Below are positions 35,358 to 44,814 of a DNA stretch of 64,000 bases, piece by piece. Each line of letters begins with the position of its first letter. Position 1 is the first letter of the stretch. The notes under the pieces were generated by a model, which ran no database searches, had not been told where the DNA came from, and worked only from the letters and a program-made list of their open reading frames with translations. Both the position numbers and the translations under genes were made by a program. Source of the DNA: a virus. Lineage: Duplodnaviria; Caudoviricetes. The stretch lies in the IMG/VR virus record IMGVR_UViG_3300009095_000014, positions 20,581 through 84,580 of that record. The stretch is one strand, 5' to 3'.

Positions 35358-35720
35358 ATGAACAAGATCGCCAACCTGACCCAGCACAATGCTACTGAAG
35401 AGCAAGTGGCAGCGGGCGTATTCGACCTCGTCGGCGAGGATCGAAAGATGTTGGTGAAGCTTCTCACCTTCGCCACCCTCCCCACCAAGGAGGAAATCGA
35501 AGAGCGCGCCAAAGCCATCGCCATGTTGGTGATGGGATGCCGCGCCGCCATGATCGGCGGCGCCCCGTACCTCATGCCCGCTCTCGAGCGTGCACTGAAG
35601 GAAGAGGGGGTTATGCCCCTCTACGCGTTCTCGGAACGCGTGTCGGTCGAGGAACTGTTGGCAGATGGCAGTATACGGAAAATCAACGTGTTCAAACATG
35701 TGGGATGGGTCGAGGCGTAA
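35358..35720 (+). CDS. Csx20-like protein, candidate viral ring nuclease
   Basis: AGGAGG RBS; QHNATEEQ, AMIGG, GVMPLYAFSERVSVEE and DGSIRKINVFKH match my recalled Csx20 pattern (SHxLTxEQ, LIQGD, GLIPVYATTxRxxxEE, KxSxFKH); no HMM run. Confidence 0.6.
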   Translation: MNKIANLTQHNATEEQVAAGVFDLVGEDRKMLVKLLTFATLPTKEEIEERAKAIAMLVMGCRAAMIGGAPYLMPALERALKEEGVMPLYAFSERVSVEELLADGSIRKINVFKHVGWVEA

Positions 35721-36281: not shown

Positions 36282-37538
36282 TTACCTCGAATAGAAATTC
36301 ATGGAGAAGGTACGCAGGACGATGTACAGGCAAAGGCCCGTACGCACGGCAGCGATCACGGCATCGTTCTTGGATTTCACGCACCGACGAACGATCTTCT
36401 CGGACAGGGTACGCATTCCAAGCACCAGCGGATCAGACGACCTAGAGGCCATATACAGCGAACGCAACTTGGCGATCACGGCACCAACGTCAAGGTTACT
36501 GCCCATCAACGACCGGTTGGCGGCGATGGTGTCAAACGCATGGGTCAGTACATCGTCGACCAAGGTTTCAATCTCCTTGTCGCCGCGCGGACCGTAGTTG
36601 ACCGAAGTGTAGTCCAACGCGTCACGAAGCAGCTTCTCCGGCATGACTGGCATGGCGTTGGAAACGATCTTCACCAACTCTTCGCGGATGTAGGAGGGCT
36701 TATCGCTGATGACGGTGTGGATGTAACGACGGTACGTCTGAAACTGTCGCTGCTTATCACGGGCACTGGTCACCCCGTCGAACGTCACCATGGAACTGGT
36801 GGAACGGATCGATGCCTTGGGGTTCAGGCGGATGGTCTCGAACACATCACGGATGTTGTTGATGATGCTCTTGATCCTACCCTGGATGTCGTTGCACATG
36901 TAGACGATCTTGAAGTCATCGTCAAAATGCGTGATCGTCTTGTAATGGATGCTGTTCTTGGCCAGGATGTCCTTGGTACGGGCATCCAGAAGGGCACCCC
37001 ATGAACCGTAGACCTTCAGGCCGTACTTCTTGGTCAGCGCGGCGTAGGTGGCCACGGCGACCGCTTCGTCAGCCGGATGACGGAAATAGAAGGCCAGAAT
37101 GCTGGTGATGAACTTGTACTGCATCATCAGGATGGTGTCATGCATCCCAGCTTCTTTTTCACTGGCACTCAAGTGAGGGCTGCTGTAGATGGCATGGGTC
37201 AGCCACAGGAACGACATGTTCATGATGTCACCGGAAACCTTACGCACTTCCTTTCCGGCCGCTCGGTCTTCCGGCGGATACACGGCATCGACGGTGTGCA
37301 GGTCTTCTTCCAGAGCAGCCTCGTCAGCAATGAGGATATCGTCGAACCACCGGTTGCGATCCTCGGGACGGAACCGAACCGGGTGAACCCCCATGAGGTT
37401 ACCGCCGAAGAAGGCGATGTGGTCTTCGTTCTTATTGGCGAAGTTCTGGGTGTACTGGCTCAACCGCCGGATAAACGCACGGTCGATCTTCAGGTCGGCA
37501 CAGCCTTTGGCAAAGACCTGTTTAACGGAGGGAGACAT
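36282..37538 (-). CDS. Conserved jumbo-phage protein
   Basis: 418 aa; GAGG RBS; HIAFFGGNLMGV motif recalled from phiKZ-like phages. Confidence 0.75.
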   Translation of the reverse strand: MSPSVKQVFAKGCADLKIDRAFIRRLSQYTQNFANKNEDHIAFFGGNLMGVHPVRFRPEDRNRWFDDILIADEAALEEDLHTVDAVYPPEDRAAGKEVRKVSGDIMNMSFLWLTHAIYSSPHLSASEKEAGMHDTILMMQYKFITSILAFYFRHPADEAVAVATYAALTKKYGLKVYGSWGALLDARTKDILAKNSIHYKTITHFDDDFKIVYMCNDIQGRIKSIINNIRDVFETIRLNPKASIRSTSSMVTFDGVTSARDKQRQFQTYRRYIHTVISDKPSYIREELVKIVSNAMPVMPEKLLRDALDYTSVNYGPRGDKEIETLVDDVLTHAFDTIAANRSLMGSNLDVGAVIAKLRSLYMASRSSDPLVLGMRTLSEKIVRRCVKSKNDAVIAAVRTGLCLYIVLRTFSMNFYSR

Positions 37539-37612: not shown

Positions 37613-38077
37613 GTGAGTTATCAATCGAAATTCGGATCGCTCTTTGGTGGCGCTGCCAGTCATCTGGAAAGCAAGGGCGAAGGTCCCGTGATTGGCGTCT
37701 ACATCCCTGAAGGCGCTACGGTGAGCCACATCCCCAGTGTGGAAGGTTACACGGTGGTTGGTCGCGATTGGTGTGGAACGGCTTCTATGGAAGCCCGTGA
37801 GGCCATCCTGCACCATGTACGCAAGATGATCGAAAAGGAAGAAGAGGAAGAACGCGAAGAAGAAGATTTCTACGACGACTATTCGCTCTTTGCTATCGTT
37901 CCGGAAATCGATCCGTACATGATCGACTCGCTGGGTGAGCTGCCCCGTCAAACCGGTGCATGGTTGACCGACAGTGTGGAGAACTACTCCGGCGAAGTAC
38001 TGGAGAGGGTGCGTCAATCCTTCGACGTGGATCGGATCTTCCTCAGTTACGAGGAATTCCAAGAAAGCCTGCGTTAA
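37613..38077 (+). CDS. Acidic hypothetical protein
   Basis: 154 aa; GTG start with GGAG RBS; poly-Glu tract. Confidence 0.7.
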   Translation: MSYQSKFGSLFGGAASHLESKGEGPVIGVYIPEGATVSHIPSVEGYTVVGRDWCGTASMEAREAILHHVRKMIEKEEEEEREEEDFYDDYSLFAIVPEIDPYMIDSLGELPRQTGAWLTDSVENYSGEVLERVRQSFDVDRIFLSYEEFQESLR

Positions 38078-38083
38078 ACGCAT

Positions 38084-38113
38084 ATAGAGGGAGGGCACGT
38101 GCCCTCCCTCTAT
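38084..38113. repeat. Perfect 30-bp palindrome between convergent genes
   Basis: ATAGAGGGAGGGCAC|GTGCCCTCCCTCTAT then GCCG. Confidence 0.85.
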
Positions 38114-38119
38114 GCCGCA

Positions 38120-39034
38120 TCACTTCACCAAGGCGGTGGTCACACGATACAGGGCGTCTTCCACGTAACGGTCCATCAGGGTTTGACGGAGAGGGACGTT
38201 ACGCTCGAAGAGTACCTTGAGGACTTCGGCGTAACGCTTGACGTCGTAGTCGAACGTCTTGGCCAGTTCACCGGTCAGACCCAGGGATTCTGCCTTCGGG
38301 ATACTACGATCGAACGCATCGGCGATGATCTCGCGGACCTGGAGTTCTTCCGGGGGCAGTTGCACTTGGTCAGTAAAGGTGAAGGTGTCCAGTTCTTCCA
38401 GTTGGACCTGTTCCTCGACCTTGACCGACGGGGCGAACGATTGGTTCATTTCGGCGCGGTCATCACTGACATCCAGCGTCAACATACCGGTCGGACCACG
38501 CAGCACCAGAATGCCCGTGTGCGGGTCGTAGGTGGCACCCAGACGGATACCGGTGGGAGCGGGAGCGGGAGTGGGGTTCAGGTCCCACGACCGGCAATTG
38601 TGGTTGAGCTTCTCGTAGCTCTCGAAGAGCTTGTCGAAGTCGGGTTCAGGAATGGAGGCATCCACCCCGGCCAGGAACTTCACCGGGTCGGCGAGGTACT
38701 CCATTGCGGCCATGAACTTGGTATCGGGGTTGGCGGATGCCCGCAGGGACAGCTGCTCGTACTGATGTCGGCGATCGTACTTGCTGTAGGCCAGTAGGTC
38801 ACCGACTTTGCGGTACAGGTCCTTGATGGCTTCTTCTTCACCGATCTTCGAGTTGTACTTGGCGGGGTTGACCGCACCCGATTGACCCACGGTGACGTAG
38901 CCGTTGACCAGATGGCCCACGGCCAAGGTAGTCGTGGTCAGTTCAATGAACTGGATGTCGATGGACTTGATGGTATCCTTGATCTGGTCAAGGGTGATGT
39001 CATGTAGGTTGAAATGGGGGAATTGTGCTTTCAT
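38120..39034 (-). CDS. N4 Gp49/Sf6 gene 66-like (Acb4-like) domain fused to a C-terminal region of unknown function
   Basis: 304 aa from ATG 39034 (AGGA RBS); TTTTLAVGHLVNGYVTVGQSGAVNPAKYNSKIGEEEA fits the recalled PF13876 pattern TxCxLxLxNGFxVxGxSACxxPxNFDxEIG. Confidence 0.65.
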   Translation of the reverse strand: MKAQFPHFNLHDITLDQIKDTIKSIDIQFIELTTTTLAVGHLVNGYVTVGQSGAVNPAKYNSKIGEEEAIKDLYRKVGDLLAYSKYDRRHQYEQLSLRASANPDTKFMAAMEYLADPVKFLAGVDASIPEPDFDKLFESYEKLNHNCRSWDLNPTPAPAPTGIRLGATYDPHTGILVLRGPTGMLTLDVSDDRAEMNQSFAPSVKVEEQVQLEELDTFTFTDQVQLPPEELQVREIIADAFDRSIPKAESLGLTGELAKTFDYDVKRYAEVLKVLFERNVPLRQTLMDRYVEDALYRVTTALVK

Positions 39035-39422
39035 GGTAATGCTTCCTGTGTAGGGCTGATGTGATAATCTCATCTGATCCTGACATGGAATTTTCTTTTA
39101 CGGGAAGGTCTGTTATTTTATGTCTTCACCACTTCGGTTTTTGGGAAGGGGGGAGACATTTTGATTGCGAGGAACGAGTAATCAAAATGGCGGGGGATGG
39201 GTAAGATAATAGCTCTATCTTCGGCGGAATCTGGAATGGAACGGTAGTGGAATGTAAGATGACAGAGAAGATAGATTCCTACTGTAGGCGCGAAGCGCCT
39301 ACTTTATGCCGTCTTTTTTACGCATCATTTAATCTCACCTTACTGTAAAAAAATACAACATTAAAGAAATACAAACACAGTGAGTGATATGAATCGAGCT
39401 ATATCGCAAGGGGGTTACAGAC

Positions 39423-39545
39423 GTGGGTGAGTTAGAGCGAGAGAACGATGATGAATGGATCGGAGAGATCATCTGGTCACTGGTAGGGCTACTGGTGCTG
39501 TTTGTAGGGACGGGGATGTTTACGCTCAATGCTTTTCTGAGGTAG
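39423..39545 (+). CDS. Tiny membrane protein 1 (40 aa)
   Basis: GTG start; MGELERENDDEWIGEIIWSLVGLLVLFVGTGMFTLNAFLR. Confidence 0.55.
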   Translation: MGELERENDDEWIGEIIWSLVGLLVLFVGTGMFTLNAFLR

Positions 39546-39548
39546 TAT

Positions 39549-39686
39549 ATGAAGCGATGGTGGAACTCCATGTCCCCTAGCGAACGGTTGGCCACTACGA
39601 CTCTGATCGTGCTGGCTACCGGTGCAATCGTGCAGATCGTCATGGTTTTCTGCATGTTCTACAACCACTTTCAAGGTGCGCAGTAA
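39549..39686 (+). CDS. Tiny membrane protein 2 (45 aa)
   Basis: MKRWWNSMSPSERLATTTLIVLATGAIVQIVMVFCMFYNHFQGAQ; TAATG-coupled to next ORF. Confidence 0.6.
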   Translation: MKRWWNSMSPSERLATTTLIVLATGAIVQIVMVFCMFYNHFQGAQ

Positions 39687-39826
39687 TGAAGACGCTTGTT
39701 TTCCGTACACTGTCGGGGATGTGTTTCATGTTGATGATCGCGGGTGTACTGTGCTCGATCGTACCGCTGATGGTAACGAGTGCGCTGAGCGCTGCACGCG
39801 ACTGGCTGGAGGCTAGGGCGATCTGA
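39686..39826 (+). CDS. Tiny membrane protein 3 (46 aa)
   Basis: MKTLVFRTLSGMCFMLMIAGVLCSIVPLMVTSALSAARDWLEARAI. Confidence 0.6.
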   Translation: MKTLVFRTLSGMCFMLMIAGVLCSIVPLMVTSALSAARDWLEARAI

Positions 39827-39835
39827 TTCTAGATT

Positions 39836-39862
39836 TTTTCAATGATACATCACCCTAGTGTA
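39836..39862 (+). promoter_or_regulatory. Candidate early promoter (variant)
   Basis: TTTTCAATGA-TACATCAC-CCTAGTGTA. Confidence 0.45.
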
Positions 39863-39912
39863 GGGGCGTCTCTCATTTGCCCTTATTTTGATAACCAGTT
39901 GGAGTAATAACC

Positions 39913-40071
39913 ATGCTGATTCTTATCTCGGGTGTGATTGCAGTTCTGGCACTTGGTGCAAAGCTGGTGGTCAGTTCTGGTAACTTTACCGAAACCGTGA
40001 TTAACACGGTAGACGGTATCTTCGGCTTGTCTGTGGCTGTATTCACCTTCATAGGGGCAACCGTATCATGA
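39913..40071 (+). CDS. Tiny two-helix membrane protein 4 (52 aa)
   Basis: GGAG RBS; MLILISGVIAVLALGAKLVVSSGNFTETVINTVDGIFGLSVAVFTFIGATVS; ATGA overlap with next ORF. Confidence 0.7.
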   Translation: MLILISGVIAVLALGAKLVVSSGNFTETVINTVDGIFGLSVAVFTFIGATVS

Positions 40072-40166
40072 AAGATCTATTGAAACCTCTGATCGCGTTG
40101 GTGGGCATCCCTTGGGTTATCATCATCGCGATCATCGTCCTAGCCGTTGGCTTCGCCAGCATCTAA
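40068..40166 (+). CDS. Tiny membrane protein 5 (32 aa)
   Basis: MKDLLKPLIALVGIPWVIIIAIIVLAVGFASI; followed by hairpin GGGAGGGTCA-TT-TGACCCTCCC. Confidence 0.65.
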   Translation: MKDLLKPLIALVGIPWVIIIAIIVLAVGFASI

Positions 40167-40234
40167 CCGGTATAAAACGGGAGGGTCATTTGACCCTCCC
40201 TTTATGCAGTAAATTCAAAATAGGAGCAATAACC

Positions 40235-40969
40235 GTGAGTAAACAAAAGCCGAGCAACGTCAAGCTGTTGGAACCAGTACGGCACGGCATGAATGACATA
40301 CCTAACAATGCAGTTTGCGCACTCCACAATTGGAAGCGCTACGCTGTCAATTGGGGTAACTTGGTCTACGATGCCATTTTGCCGGACGACATCGATGATG
40401 TAACCATCCCTATCAATGCCGTGAAACTGGTGGTCAAGTCATACGACAACAAAGACACCTGCCTGACAACGCATTACGTGTCATCGAACTTACCCGAAAT
40501 CGCATGGTCTCGGGTGTTTACACAACTGGCCGATTCCTTGGCATACTACGGCATCGTCCCATTGGAAGCAGTGCGCATCGTCGCTGAATTCAATGTAGAA
40601 CACGCCAGCGGTTCGCTCAGCCTTTGGTTGCAGCCGAATATCAACGCTTTCAGAGTTGAAGTGGATGGCGGCACGGTGGAGGTACAAGACCGTTCCGTTA
40701 CACCTACCCCTGTCGAAGCTAACCAATTGGTGCTGCTCCAGTGTCAATCGGTCACGGGTGTTATTAAAACCTTGTGGCTGTCGCCGAGGGTGAAAGATAC
40801 CCGCCCCGGTCCCATTACCACCACGTTACTGAACGTCATGCGTCAGATCGAAGGTCACGAGTGGCTCAAGAACAGTCATAAACTGGTGGCCTTCTACTCG
40901 CCCCTTGAAAACGTGAATCTGACAATCCAGTATGTTTGTAAAGGGATAGGTAACATTAGAAAAGTCTAG
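40235..40969 (+). CDS. Hypothetical protein (244 aa), lower GC
   Basis: GTG start with AGGAG RBS. Confidence 0.75.
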   Translation: MSKQKPSNVKLLEPVRHGMNDIPNNAVCALHNWKRYAVNWGNLVYDAILPDDIDDVTIPINAVKLVVKSYDNKDTCLTTHYVSSNLPEIAWSRVFTQLADSLAYYGIVPLEAVRIVAEFNVEHASGSLSLWLQPNINAFRVEVDGGTVEVQDRSVTPTPVEANQLVLLQCQSVTGVIKTLWLSPRVKDTRPGPITTTLLNVMRQIEGHEWLKNSHKLVAFYSPLENVNLTIQYVCKGIGNIRKV

Positions 40970-42240: not shown

Positions 42241-43068
42241 TCAATGACGACCGCCGATGATCACGTTCTGAATTCGGCGGTACTTGGTGGTATCCATCAT
42301 GACAGAAGACACACGCCAGTGCTCGCGCATGTGGTCTTTGTACATCTGATTGGCGTCGGCGTATGAATCTACGATTTCCCGGAAGCGACCGATGTTCACG
42401 CCGGCTCGTAGTTGACCTTCGTCGAGGGCGATGATCAGCTTGTTGTAAATATGGGCCTTGGTAGCCAAGACCACCAGTTCGCTGAACACGTCGTAATAGG
42501 CCGGAGGGACGTTGGCGAAGTTCGGCTCGTGACTGATCATACAGCGCAGGTACACTTCGTTGCCCATGGCTTGTGCATCACTGACCATTACGGTGTTATC
42601 ACCGATAAGGGTCACGTACGCCGAACTGATCGCCGGAATCGGAGCACTGGCTTGGAAAATCCCATTGGCTACATCCAGTAGCGGCGACGCGCCATAGGTG
42701 GGCAAGTAGGTGGTCCCGTAGACATTACCCCGGTTGAAGCTGACCGAGTACACTGCCGTGATCGATCGCCCACCCGTGAGTTCCTTAGGGATTCGGTAGA
42801 TGAAGTTATACGGGTCGATACGTTCCTGCACCAGCCCGACCAAGGGAATGACCGTCTCGATACCCGAGCACAGGTTGACATCAATGGACACCCGCGCATC
42901 GACCACTTCCTTGCGGATGATCGAATCCACGGATACCCCCAGTTGGTTATCGAGGCTGTACTCTCGACGACTGGGATTATAACGACGCGGCATGAAGGCT
43001 TCTTGTAGAACCTCCGCCGGGATTTCAAACTTCACCCGCTGGATGCAGATGGGGATAAGGTTCATCAC
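42241..43068 (-). CDS. Conserved phiKZ-like protein, possibly virion-associated
   Basis: 275 aa; RVKFEIPxEVL and LATKAHIYN motifs recalled from the family; divergent from phuZ. Confidence 0.65.
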   Translation of the reverse strand: MMNLIPICIQRVKFEIPAEVLQEAFMPRRYNPSRREYSLDNQLGVSVDSIIRKEVVDARVSIDVNLCSGIETVIPLVGLVQERIDPYNFIYRIPKELTGGRSITAVYSVSFNRGNVYGTTYLPTYGASPLLDVANGIFQASAPIPAISSAYVTLIGDNTVMVSDAQAMGNEVYLRCMISHEPNFANVPPAYYDVFSELVVLATKAHIYNKLIIALDEGQLRAGVNIGRFREIVDSYADANQMYKDHMREHWRVSSVMMDTTKYRRIQNVIIGGRH

Positions 43069-43148: not shown

Positions 43149-43244
43149 GTATTTGCTCTCACAGCCTGAAGTCTCTTTAAGACATCAGTAAATCTTAACT
43201 AGCTCTGCAATGACTATGCAGAGATCCAACCCTGGAGTATAACC

Positions 43245-44243
43245 ATGTCGTCCAATGATCTGATCGTTTCCTACAATGGCCCCGTGGGCACCATGCGTCT
43301 GTATGGCTGCGGCGGCGGTGGTGTGAACATCGCCAAGAACTACGTCAACGCCAAGAAGCCCCGTCCGGGCATCGCCGAGATCTTCACCAGCTTCATCGAC
43401 ACCAGTCGCAGCAACACCGTCGATGTGCCGAATCAGGATGACGTGTTCGTCCTGCCCGACCTCGACGGCTCTGGTAAGATCCGCGCCGAGAACCACGAGG
43501 CCATCGCTATGATGGTTCCGAAGATCCTCAAGGACCACGCTCCCTGTGATCTGAACGTGGTAATCTTCACCGGTGCCGGTGGCACCGGTTCCGTGGCCGG
43601 TCCGCTGATCATGGCGGAACTGCTGCGCCGTGGTCAGAACGCTGTAGCCGTGGTTATCGGTTCGCAAGAATCGGCGATCACCTCGGACAATACCTTCAAG
43701 ACCCTCAAGTCCCTCGACCACATCAGCCGTGTCGGCGAGCATCCGGTAGTCATGTACTACCTGAACAACGACCGGGACGTGAAGCGCTCCGATGTGGACA
43801 AGGAAGCGACCTTCGTGATCTCTTCCCTCGCCGTGCTGGGCTCTCGCCAGAACCGTGAGATGGACTCCAAGGACCTCTCCCACTGGATCAACTTCAGCAA
43901 GTCGACTTCCGTGAGCAGCCAACTGGCCATGCTCAAGGTGTTCGATTCCGCCGATCAGGTGGACGCCGAAGCCCCGGAATGCTTCAGCATGGCCAGCCTG
44001 CTGGTCAATGAAGATGAAACCCAACCGAAGACCATGCCCCAGTACAGCTCCGCTGGCTACTACCGACCCGGTACCGATATCGAGAACAATCTGTTCTTCT
44101 GTATCGAAACCGATTCGCTGAAGCCGATCATGGCGAAGCTGGGCAAGATCTCCGAGCAGGTCGAGGAAAGCAAGAACGCCCGTGTGGAAGGGCCGTCGAT
44201 CGTGTCCAGCAAGGACAAGGTCACCGGCATGCTGGTTCTGTAA
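43245..44243 (+). CDS. phuZ: Phage tubulin PhuZ
   Basis: GCGGGGVNI, IDTS, GSGK and GAGGTGSVAGP tubulin/FtsZ GTPase motifs; 332 aa. Confidence 0.95.
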   Translation: MSSNDLIVSYNGPVGTMRLYGCGGGGVNIAKNYVNAKKPRPGIAEIFTSFIDTSRSNTVDVPNQDDVFVLPDLDGSGKIRAENHEAIAMMVPKILKDHAPCDLNVVIFTGAGGTGSVAGPLIMAELLRRGQNAVAVVIGSQESAITSDNTFKTLKSLDHISRVGEHPVVMYYLNNDRDVKRSDVDKEATFVISSLAVLGSRQNREMDSKDLSHWINFSKSTSVSSQLAMLKVFDSADQVDAEAPECFSMASLLVNEDETQPKTMPQYSSAGYYRPGTDIENNLFFCIETDSLKPIMAKLGKISEQVEESKNARVEGPSIVSSKDKVTGMLVL

Positions 44244-44313
44244 GTGACCAAAGACTGGGGGACTTCGGTCCCCCAGTCTTATGCCCTTCCTTTTTGTTTG
44301 TAAGGTGTGAACT

Positions 44314-44814
44314 ATGGCCGCTGCCAAAAGTCTTTTCGATAACTTCATCCTCGCCGCCTTTCGCCTCTGGCTTCCGGTCCAACACTTCTACCGCTACACG
44401 TGGAAGATCTGGCTGTTGGCTATCCGCTACAAGGGCAAGAAGAACATTCCCGCTGAAAAGATGGAGGAAGTCTTCAGTAACTTGGATTTCACTGGGTTCA
44501 TTCGCACCAGCGACGTAGTGATGACTATTCGCGGTGCAGCCATTCTCTGCAATCGCAACGAACTGGACCTCAAACTGTACCTGATTGCAGCGGGTTACAT
44601 AAACCACACTTGCACGTTCGAGGAGATGGCGATCTTCCATGCGCTGCGTGAAGCGGAAAACCCGCGACAAGCTACGCTGGATGCCATGCTCGAAAATGGA
44701 GACCTGACCCAGTCCATGATTAACTTCTACTTCACCGGTGAGCGAGGCGAAAAGTTCAAGACGTTCGTCGCCACCGGCAATCCCCTTGAAATCAAGGAAA
44801 TTCTCGACAAATGA
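44314..44814 (+). CDS. Hypothetical protein (166 aa)
   Basis: ORF downstream of phuZ; ATGA-coupled to next ORF. Confidence 0.8.
   Translation: MAAAKSLFDNFILAAFRLWLPVQHFYRYTWKIWLLAIRYKGKKNIPAEKMEEVFSNLDFTGFIRTSDVVMTIRGAAILCNRNELDLKLYLIAAGYINHTCTFEEMAIFHALREAENPRQATLDAMLENGDLTQSMINFYFTGERGEKFKTFVATGNPLEIKEILDK

Follow-up and report, generated by a model that had tools for sequence, protein, structure and literature searches.

PF13876 is the family of the Acb4 sponges, of which SPO1 Acb4, a protein of 96 amino acids (aa), forms a tetramer that binds four molecules of 3'3'-cyclic GMP-AMP (3'3'-cGAMP), a ligand bound by all eight of the PF13876 homologues tested (10.1101/2024.12.30.630793). Several Acb4 homologues carry extensions (Chang et al., 10.1101/2024.12.30.630793), and Acb4 is often fused to Tad2 (PF11195) or Sequestin (PF21825) in functional proteins that block two pathways (10.1101/2025.07.12.664507; 10.64898/2026.06.04.730250). 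Sequestin was itself discovered as an unknown fusion partner of Acb4 (10.1101/2025.07.12.664507), and one Acb4-Sequestin fusion, Ab09 gp59, blocks both Thoeris I and the cyclic-oligonucleotide-based antiphage signalling system (CBASS) (10.64898/2026.06.04.730250). Here we describe a gene at positions 38120..39034 (minus strand) of a 64,000-nucleotide stretch of the virus record IMGVR_UViG_3300009095_000014, hereafter the window, whose 304-residue product joins an N-terminal Acb4-like domain to a 209-residue extension. We consider it likely that this product is an Acb4-family cyclic-dinucleotide sponge carrying an orphan module, encoded by an accessory gene of a phiKZ-like soil jumbo phage.

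Acb4 fusions are already published, and the protein described here adds another variant of them. An initial annotation, made from the DNA sequence without database searches, had presented the fusion as a departure from a family that is normally short and stand-alone. With Acb4-Tad2 and Acb4-Sequestin fusions published and functional, the rarity of the arrangement was overstated, and the description of Acb4 as a stand-alone protein is half right: 17 of the 45 relatives that we recovered exceed 150 aa, of which three have Sequestin as their extension and two have Tad2, while in 12 the extension is unknown.

The Acb4-like domain and its predicted pocket

The Acb4-like domain occupies residues 10-99 (38738..39007; this and all other protein features are encoded on the minus strand) and has a helix-strand-strand-strand-long helix layout. 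The initial annotation had placed the N-terminal ~90 aa in PF13876 and had stated that Acb4 belongs to this family; the first claim holds up in the Pfam hidden Markov model (HMM) search, and the second is borne out by the literature (10.1101/2024.12.30.630793). The PF13876 (Phage_gp49_66) model matches residues 13-83 (38786-38998) with an E-value of 9.8e-10 and a score of 39.3 bits (curated cut-off 27); the match spans positions 1-76 of the 82 in the profile, and PHROGs 322, 3934 and 9467 match the same N-terminal stretch only. When 1.84 billion representative proteins were searched exhaustively with phmmer, ~45 PF13876 relatives with 27-45% identity were returned, all of them aligned to residues ~5-100. 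The Acb4 domain of Pm86, a validated Acb4-Tad2 fusion, was among the tblastn matches with 38.6% identity. In an alignment with 25 relatives, the invariant or near-invariant positions of the family (T36, G45, G50, S52, G65 and A69) are all kept.

The full protein found no match among the sequences of the PDB by phmmer; a profile of 26 members led to one solved structure, SPO1 Acb4 (9E4W, E 1e-12), which was reached by the family profile only. Modelling of residues 1-100 by AlphaFold2 (AF2) with the alignment of 25 relatives gave a predicted local distance difference test score (pLDDT) of 91.3, with helices at residues 15-21 and 62-99 and strands at 22-29, 35-42 and 47-53. Foldseek returned 13 matches at E <= 0.001, and the ten listed are all chains of 9E4W, with template modelling (TM) scores of 0.64/0.67. 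Alignment to 9E4W by VIA gave a Z-score of 10.4 and a root-mean-square deviation of 2.5 A over 74 residues; the next entry reached 7.6, and double-stranded RNA-binding domains (dsRBDs) and hibernation factors lay between 5.5 and 6.9. The same background of dsRBD and hibernation-factor matches has been described for Acb4 itself (10.1101/2024.12.30.630793, Chang et al.). As judged by HMM match, profile-to-PDB search and predicted fold, the N-terminal domain is a divergent member of the Acb4 family.

Ten SPO1 contact residues were carried over to this protein through the HMM alignment, and four of the ten are conserved: the stacking aromatic F48 (Y46 here) and the adenine-pocket residues F62 (Y60), N63 (N61) and I66 (I64). 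V56 is conservatively replaced by A54. The remaining five positions are changed, comprising the guanine-edge readers K36 (T34) and E49 (V47) and the backbone contacts Y57 (V55), T70 (E68) and K81 (D79). Eight of the ten positions hold the commonest or second commonest state among the 25 relatives, the minority states being A54 and E68, such that the protein resembles an ordinary, albeit divergent, family member encoded by a Gram-negative-type phage. Since the family itself varies at its specificity positions, this pattern of contact residues neither proves nor excludes binding, and ligand preference cannot be read from sequence. An ESMFold2 model of the complex (four copies of residues 1-100 with four 3'3'-cGAMP, alignment A1) scored 0.03 against a mark of 0.42, and counts neither way.

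A single intact gene with an orphan extension

The open reading frame (ORF) list and its translation give the gene 304 codons followed by a TGA stop at 38120-38122. Its minus-strand ORF can also be read as 38120-39073, or 317 aa, when counted from the first ATG (39073); the 304-aa reading begins with MKAQFPHF at the second ATG (39034), which is preceded at a distance of 7 nt by a Shine-Dalgarno-like AGGAAG (39042..39047) in the sequence and is the recorded start of the identical protein in public collections. The longer start may be an alternative, and no conclusion hinges on it. Frame-specific codon scoring, for which ten confident genes of the window served as the training set, gave 0.63, 0.56 and 0.71 for residues 1-95, 96-195 and 196-304, respectively, compared with 0.43-0.56 for confident core genes and -0.6 to -0.9 for the other two frames of the gene's own strand; an ORF on the opposite strand (38099-38797) scored 0.13, at the level of a shadow ORF. 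Directly 3' of the stop codon lies a perfect palindromic hairpin (38077..38121) with a 13-bp G+C-rich core stem (38084-38113), situated between the gene and the convergent 154-aa gene at 37613-38077 and common to both. As RNA it folds at -32.3 kcal/mol with a z of -6.5, a stability that none of 200 shuffles attained, and it is probably a two-way transcription terminator. Because the codon score is uniform at the level of core genes and the hairpin follows right after the stop, the entire 304-aa frame is one real, intact gene.

Two further contigs, a Logan contig of 12.4 kb and one of 138 kb, are recorded as encoding an identical 304-aa product; in addition, a 267-aa fragment of the same gene (P0002) differs at two residues, and a further catalogue entry (P0003) is a version frameshifted after residue 79. 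All of these copies, including that of the window, are separate assemblies rather than independent samples, the catalogues including the same soil run. For the sequencing runs that contain this stretch, one soil metagenome was listed among DNA runs and none among RNA runs. No sigma-70-like promoter was found upstream of the gene. The promoter-like motif TACATTGT occurs five times (21261, 23192, 35051, 41082 and 49210; 1.07 expected, with one of 100 shuffles reaching five), all on the plus strand, and none of the five copies precedes this minus-strand gene.

The extension (residues 96-304, 209 residues) has an isoelectric point of 4.6 and a net charge of -13. Its first part (residues 101-150; 38585..38734) matches no family and is predicted to be helical in a low-confidence single-sequence AF2 model. 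It is followed by the Pro-rich segment NPTPAPAPTG (residues 153-162; 38549..38578), which agrees with the linker seen in the initial annotation. The most acidic stretch (residues 196-235; 38330..38449) has a net charge of -7, is predicted to be coil and contains a short internal duplication (QVQLEEL / QVQLPPEEL). At the end, residues 228-304 (38123..38353) form a predicted helical module, in which AF2 places three helices (228-244, 256-277 and 283-303) with a pLDDT of 53 at most, and the final 69 residues of the protein have a net charge of 0. The initial annotation had described the C-terminus as acidic and helical: the acidity is evident and centred on residues 196-235, while the helices come from low-confidence single-sequence models only.

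The AF2 model of the full protein, built without an alignment, has a pLDDT of 35.9, which is too low for a fold search; at low confidence it shows helices between residues 103 and 148, short strands between 166 and 188, coil up to 227 and then three helices within 228-303. An ESM Atlas model that also bears on the C-terminal helices has a pLDDT of 0.53. ESM Atlas gave no feature match for residues 95-304 or 225-304, and its structure matches stayed at TM <= 0.26 for the whole extension, with generic helical matches only for the last 80 residues. The extension probably has a beta-rich middle, which an acidic linker joins to a small helical domain at its end.

The extension had no match in Pfam (E <= 1), NCBIfam (E <= 0.1) or PHROGs (E <= 0.1), and tblastn against 50,697 phage genomes found none for either the full protein (1e-5) or residues 96-304 (E <= 1). 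In a word-indexed search of 5.8 billion proteins the only match was the 267-aa fragment described above, no relative turned up when IMG/VR and JGI metagenome contigs were scanned, and the extensions of the 17 longer PF13876 relatives share nothing with it. The exhaustive search of the 1.84 billion representatives returned nothing for the extension except three large, repeat-rich, adhesin-like bacterial proteins (P0004, P0005 and P0043), which align to residues ~101-186 with whole-library phmmer E-values of 1.5e-6 to 5.8e-4. These proteins, which have only sub-cutoff scores to curated families and no convincing family, contain ~145-aa tandem repeats with the pattern D-x-D...I-x-D-P-D ... Y-D-P-x-T-G-x-L-x-L-x-G. 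By phmmer, BLASTP and a repeat profile, a weak likeness to this repeat was delimited to residues 118-184 (38483..38683), with 39% identity to P0005 over 64 aa by BLASTP and, for a profile of ten repeat units from which the query was excluded, 29.5 bits as compared to at most 3.9 in 2000 shuffles. The alignment covers the first ~65 of ~145 repeat positions only, and the score of a single repeat is not significant against 1.84 billion proteins. We regard this evidence as weak since the proteins were selected by the query, the E-values sum near-identical repeats and so few of the repeat positions align, and we take it as a weak hint that residues 118-184 form an immunoglobulin (Ig)-like beta element.

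Two known sponge modules were considered and rejected as identities of the extension. Sequestin, suggested by the MAFFT placement of the C-terminal helices, failed HMM and profile tests: PF21825 (Sequestin, crAss001_48) matches nothing at E <= 10 anywhere in the 84.6-kb record, against a profile of three Sequestin ends the real sequence ranks 462nd of 614 scored shuffles, hhalign gives a probability of 0.1%, and a search for stand-alone Sequestins to obtain a better profile returned none. Similarly, at E <= 10 the full record contains nothing that matches the Tad2 family PF11195. Taken as a whole, the extension is an orphan module translated within the same protein as the Acb4-like domain.

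The jumbo phage and its variable slot

The window belongs to an 84.6-kb IMG/VR record with an estimated completeness of 30%. The large terminase of this record shares 54.7% identity with its counterpart in the 265-kb Pseudomonas phage pPa_SNUABM_DT01 (hereafter DT01) and ~40-44% with those of many 220-320 kb phages of Xanthomonas, Erwinia, Ralstonia, Burkholderia and Salmonella, and a PhuZ-type tubulin/TubZ gene lies ~4 kb from the gene studied. This tubulin gene (43185-44348, minus strand) is supported by a precomputed Tubulin/TubZ_C_2 match on the Logan contig and by a tblastn match to the PhuZ region of DT01 (E 1.5e-15); its 387-aa reading has no PHROG or local Pfam match at E 0.001, and the gene call is 332 aa. 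The source is an uncultivated phiKZ-like, PhuZ-encoding jumbo phage from soil.

Two further flanking genes of unknown function, both on the minus strand, are shared with DT01, namely a 418-aa core gene (36282-37538; PHROG 2921; 49% identical) and a DUF7484 / PHROG 3179 core gene (42241-43068; 45% identical). Between these flanks, the 154-aa gene, the gene studied, a run of small hydrophobic ORFs and genes of 285 and 218 aa are without DT01 counterparts, as are the two genes that separate the terminase from the 418-aa gene. As the flanks (the 418-aa, DUF7484 and PhuZ genes) are shared with DT01 and the contents between them are not, the gene occupies a hypervariable slot. DT01 PA10_00114 (291 aa), which lies at a nearby position, was considered as a counterpart and proved unrelated. 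A megablast search of the 5-kb neighbourhood against phage genomes found no match.

Among the neighbours, a 120-aa gene (35358-35717, plus strand) located 2.4 kb from the gene studied weakly resembles Csx20, a confirmed cA4 ring nuclease (10.1101/2024.09.24.614671). The NCBIfam CAS_Csx20 model matches residues 63-117, in the C-terminal half only, with an E-value of 1.6e-7 and a sub-threshold 31.7 bits (cut-off 70); the identical gene on the Logan contig has a precomputed Pfam match to PF27247 (MJ1673), and the local Pfam copy gave nothing at E <= 1. By this sequence likeness, the gene possibly encodes a phage-borne ring nuclease, a weak but consistent fit to a theme of counter-signalling.

The convergent 154-aa gene (37613-38077, plus strand) has a good coding score of 0.43 and a glutamate run (EKEEEEEREEEDFYDDY), and is without a family match. 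A second perfect palindrome (39284-39302), GTAGGCGC-GAA-GCGCCTAC, lies within the 350 non-coding nucleotides upstream of the gene studied, ahead of the array of small ORFs; as a T-rich tract follows it on the plus strand, it could stop plus-strand antisense transcription through the gene. The array itself (39423-40071, plus strand) consists of ORFs that are small (38-52 aa) and very hydrophobic, are transcribed in divergence from the gene studied, have low to modest coding scores (0.09-0.2) and are also gene calls on the Logan contig. Beyond it, a 285-aa ORF (40112-40969, plus strand) is without a family match and has a coding score of 0.13; this weak score, together with a Logan call of 244 aa, suggests that its true start probably lies downstream, and the gene is possibly a recent acquisition.

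Possible functions and comparison with known sponges

By homology to Acb4, the first ~100 residues most likely assemble into an Acb4-type homotetramer, which would soak up 3'3'-cGAMP and related CBASS products, the cyclic dinucleotide alarm signals, in the cytoplasm of the host and so keep CBASS effectors from being activated. Four copies of the 209-residue acidic module would project from the tetramer, each attached at the end of the long helix that lines the pocket, and our working guess is that the extension adds an accessory activity or a tether, leaving the dinucleotide pocket unaltered. Several observations weigh against a sponge of this kind. Typical PF13876 members score 79-86 bits in Pfam, about twice the score obtained here, for which reason we term the domain divergent; T, V, V, E and D take the place of the guanine-edge residues K36 and E49 and the backbone/phosphate contacts Y57, T70 and K81 of SPO1; and a Cys that is near-universal in the family (22 of 25 relatives) is Ala here (A54). 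Furthermore, the closest sequenced phage, DT01, is without any PF13876 gene, leaving the reading with no comparative support within the lineage; a search of sequencing runs places the gene in one soil metagenome only (a 2017 run, the possible source of the DNA); and no early-promoter motif was found upstream of it. Part of this evidence also bears on a very unlikely alternative in which the PF13876/dsRBD-like fold has been co-opted as an oligomerisation or RNA-binding part, with the real activity residing in the C-terminal region and cyclic dinucleotide binding lost. The low family score (39 bits) and the non-consensus A54, E68 and D79 at pocket positions would fit such a scenario, as would the dsRBDs and ribosome hibernation factors that come next among the structural matches (Z 5.5-7.6), a ranking which has also been reported for Acb4 (10.1101/2024.12.30.630793). 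Nevertheless, 9E4W stands at Z 10.4 against 7.6 or less for the dsRBD matches, the family-invariant residues and the aromatic, Asn and Ile contacts are all kept, and every family member tested binds 3'3'-cGAMP (10.1101/2024.12.30.630793). That the protein is an artefact, with neighbouring genes joined by assembly or sequencing error or the C-terminal part being non-coding read-through, is scarcely credible: one catalogue entry (P0003) is indeed frameshifted after residue 79 and the known copies all derive from one soil metagenome study, but all thirds of the frame score 0.56-0.71 as compared to -0.6 to -0.9 in the other two frames, the frame is uninterrupted in the IMG/VR record, the Logan contig and the 267-aa fragment, and the strong hairpin lies directly after the stop codon.

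Two further explanations concern what the extension would add to a sponge. A second anti-defence function is plausible by analogy with its precedents, the Acb4-Tad2 and Acb4-PF21825 fusions and the dual block by Ab09 gp59. The extension would in that case be a new anti-defence module on the Acb4 tetramer, which would either sequester another signal or bind a defence protein, disarming CBASS and another pathway (Thoeris, type III CRISPR cyclic oligoadenylate, Pycsar or other) from one cytoplasmic protein; it would add to, rather than replace, the sponge reading. Five of the 17 longer relatives carry Tad2 or Sequestin (12 have unknown extensions), the extension is under a coding constraint equal to that of the rest of the gene, and the variable slot holds the weakly Csx20-like neighbour. 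Even so, we hold this proposal to be unlikely, given that known sponge modules are oligomeric, measure 60-100 aa and have mostly positive pockets, as opposed to 209 aa and a net charge of -13 here, and that the extension is neither Tad2 nor Sequestin and is without a confident fold. Moreover, it has no homologue, either stand-alone or fused to another sponge, and guilt by fusion thus rests on a single protein. We find it quite unlikely that the extension instead positions or multimerises the sponge as a tether or scaffold with no ligand of its own, whether on a phage or host structure or through packaging in the virion and delivery with the DNA. This would accord with the location of the gene in the structural and packaging part of the genome, between terminase and PhuZ, with the weak resemblance of residues 118-184 to an Ig-like adhesin repeat, with an acidic linker leading to a small helical end domain, which is a common layout of tethers, and with phage-typical codon usage at the level of core genes. 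Against it, the extension has no homology to any virion protein family, the slot is variable and non-structural in DT01, and the adhesin likeness is biased by selection, a single repeat not being significant at library scale. The second function, altered ligand specificity or altered localisation raised in the initial annotation are without direct support. The extension is an orphan lacking a confident fold, and at the pocket only four of the ten SPO1 contacts are conserved, although eight positions hold states common in the family.

The 151 phage records with a detectable relative of the N-terminal domain are nearly all N4-like, 43-kb Vibrio or ~165-kb Bacillus phages; phages larger than 200 kb account for two of 60 sampled records. 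Of these two, SonariX was inspected and encodes the domain as a stand-alone protein of 122 aa. We found no paper linking Acb4 with jumbo phages, and the protein would be an early case of the Acb4 family in a phiKZ-like phage that encodes PhuZ, which fits the idea that phages with shielded DNA still face nucleotide signalling in the cytoplasm. If the extension is a new anti-defence module, then together with the Csx20-like neighbour it would mark a counter-signalling island in nucleus-forming phages that are shielded from DNA-targeting defences. It is so far a single protein from one soil metagenome, its new part has neither relatives nor a usable model, and there is no cultured host. Since fusion partners of sponges have already uncovered Sequestin, an Acb4 domain with an unmatched 209-residue partner is nevertheless a candidate for module discovery.

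In comparison with SPO1 Acb4 (9E4W), the soil-phage protein shares the Pfam family and the fold of a helix, three strands and a long helix (TM about 0.65), and keeps the stacking aromatic, the adenine-pocket residues and the family-invariant Gly, Ser and Ala. The two differ in that sequence identity is about 20-22%, that the protein described here is, at 304 aa, three times longer than the 96 aa of SPO1 Acb4, and that SPO1 is a Bacillus myophage, whereas our protein comes from a Gram-negative-type phiKZ-like jumbo phage and is a predicted sponge only. With the Acb4-Tad2 fusion of Pasteurella phage Pm86 and the Acb4-Sequestin fusions of Pseudomonas phages YH6 and Ab09 (gp59), it has in common that the Acb4 domain comes first and a C-terminal module is added, and that the genes lie in variable anti-defence regions of phages; unlike those partners, its extension is 2-3x longer than Tad2 or Sequestin, acidic and without relatives. 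PHROG 322 (profile length 239), PHROG 3934 (336) and 12 of the 17 long relatives likewise combine an N-terminal PF13876 domain with an uncharacterised C-terminal region; here, however, only the N-terminal domain aligns and the C-terminal regions share nothing.

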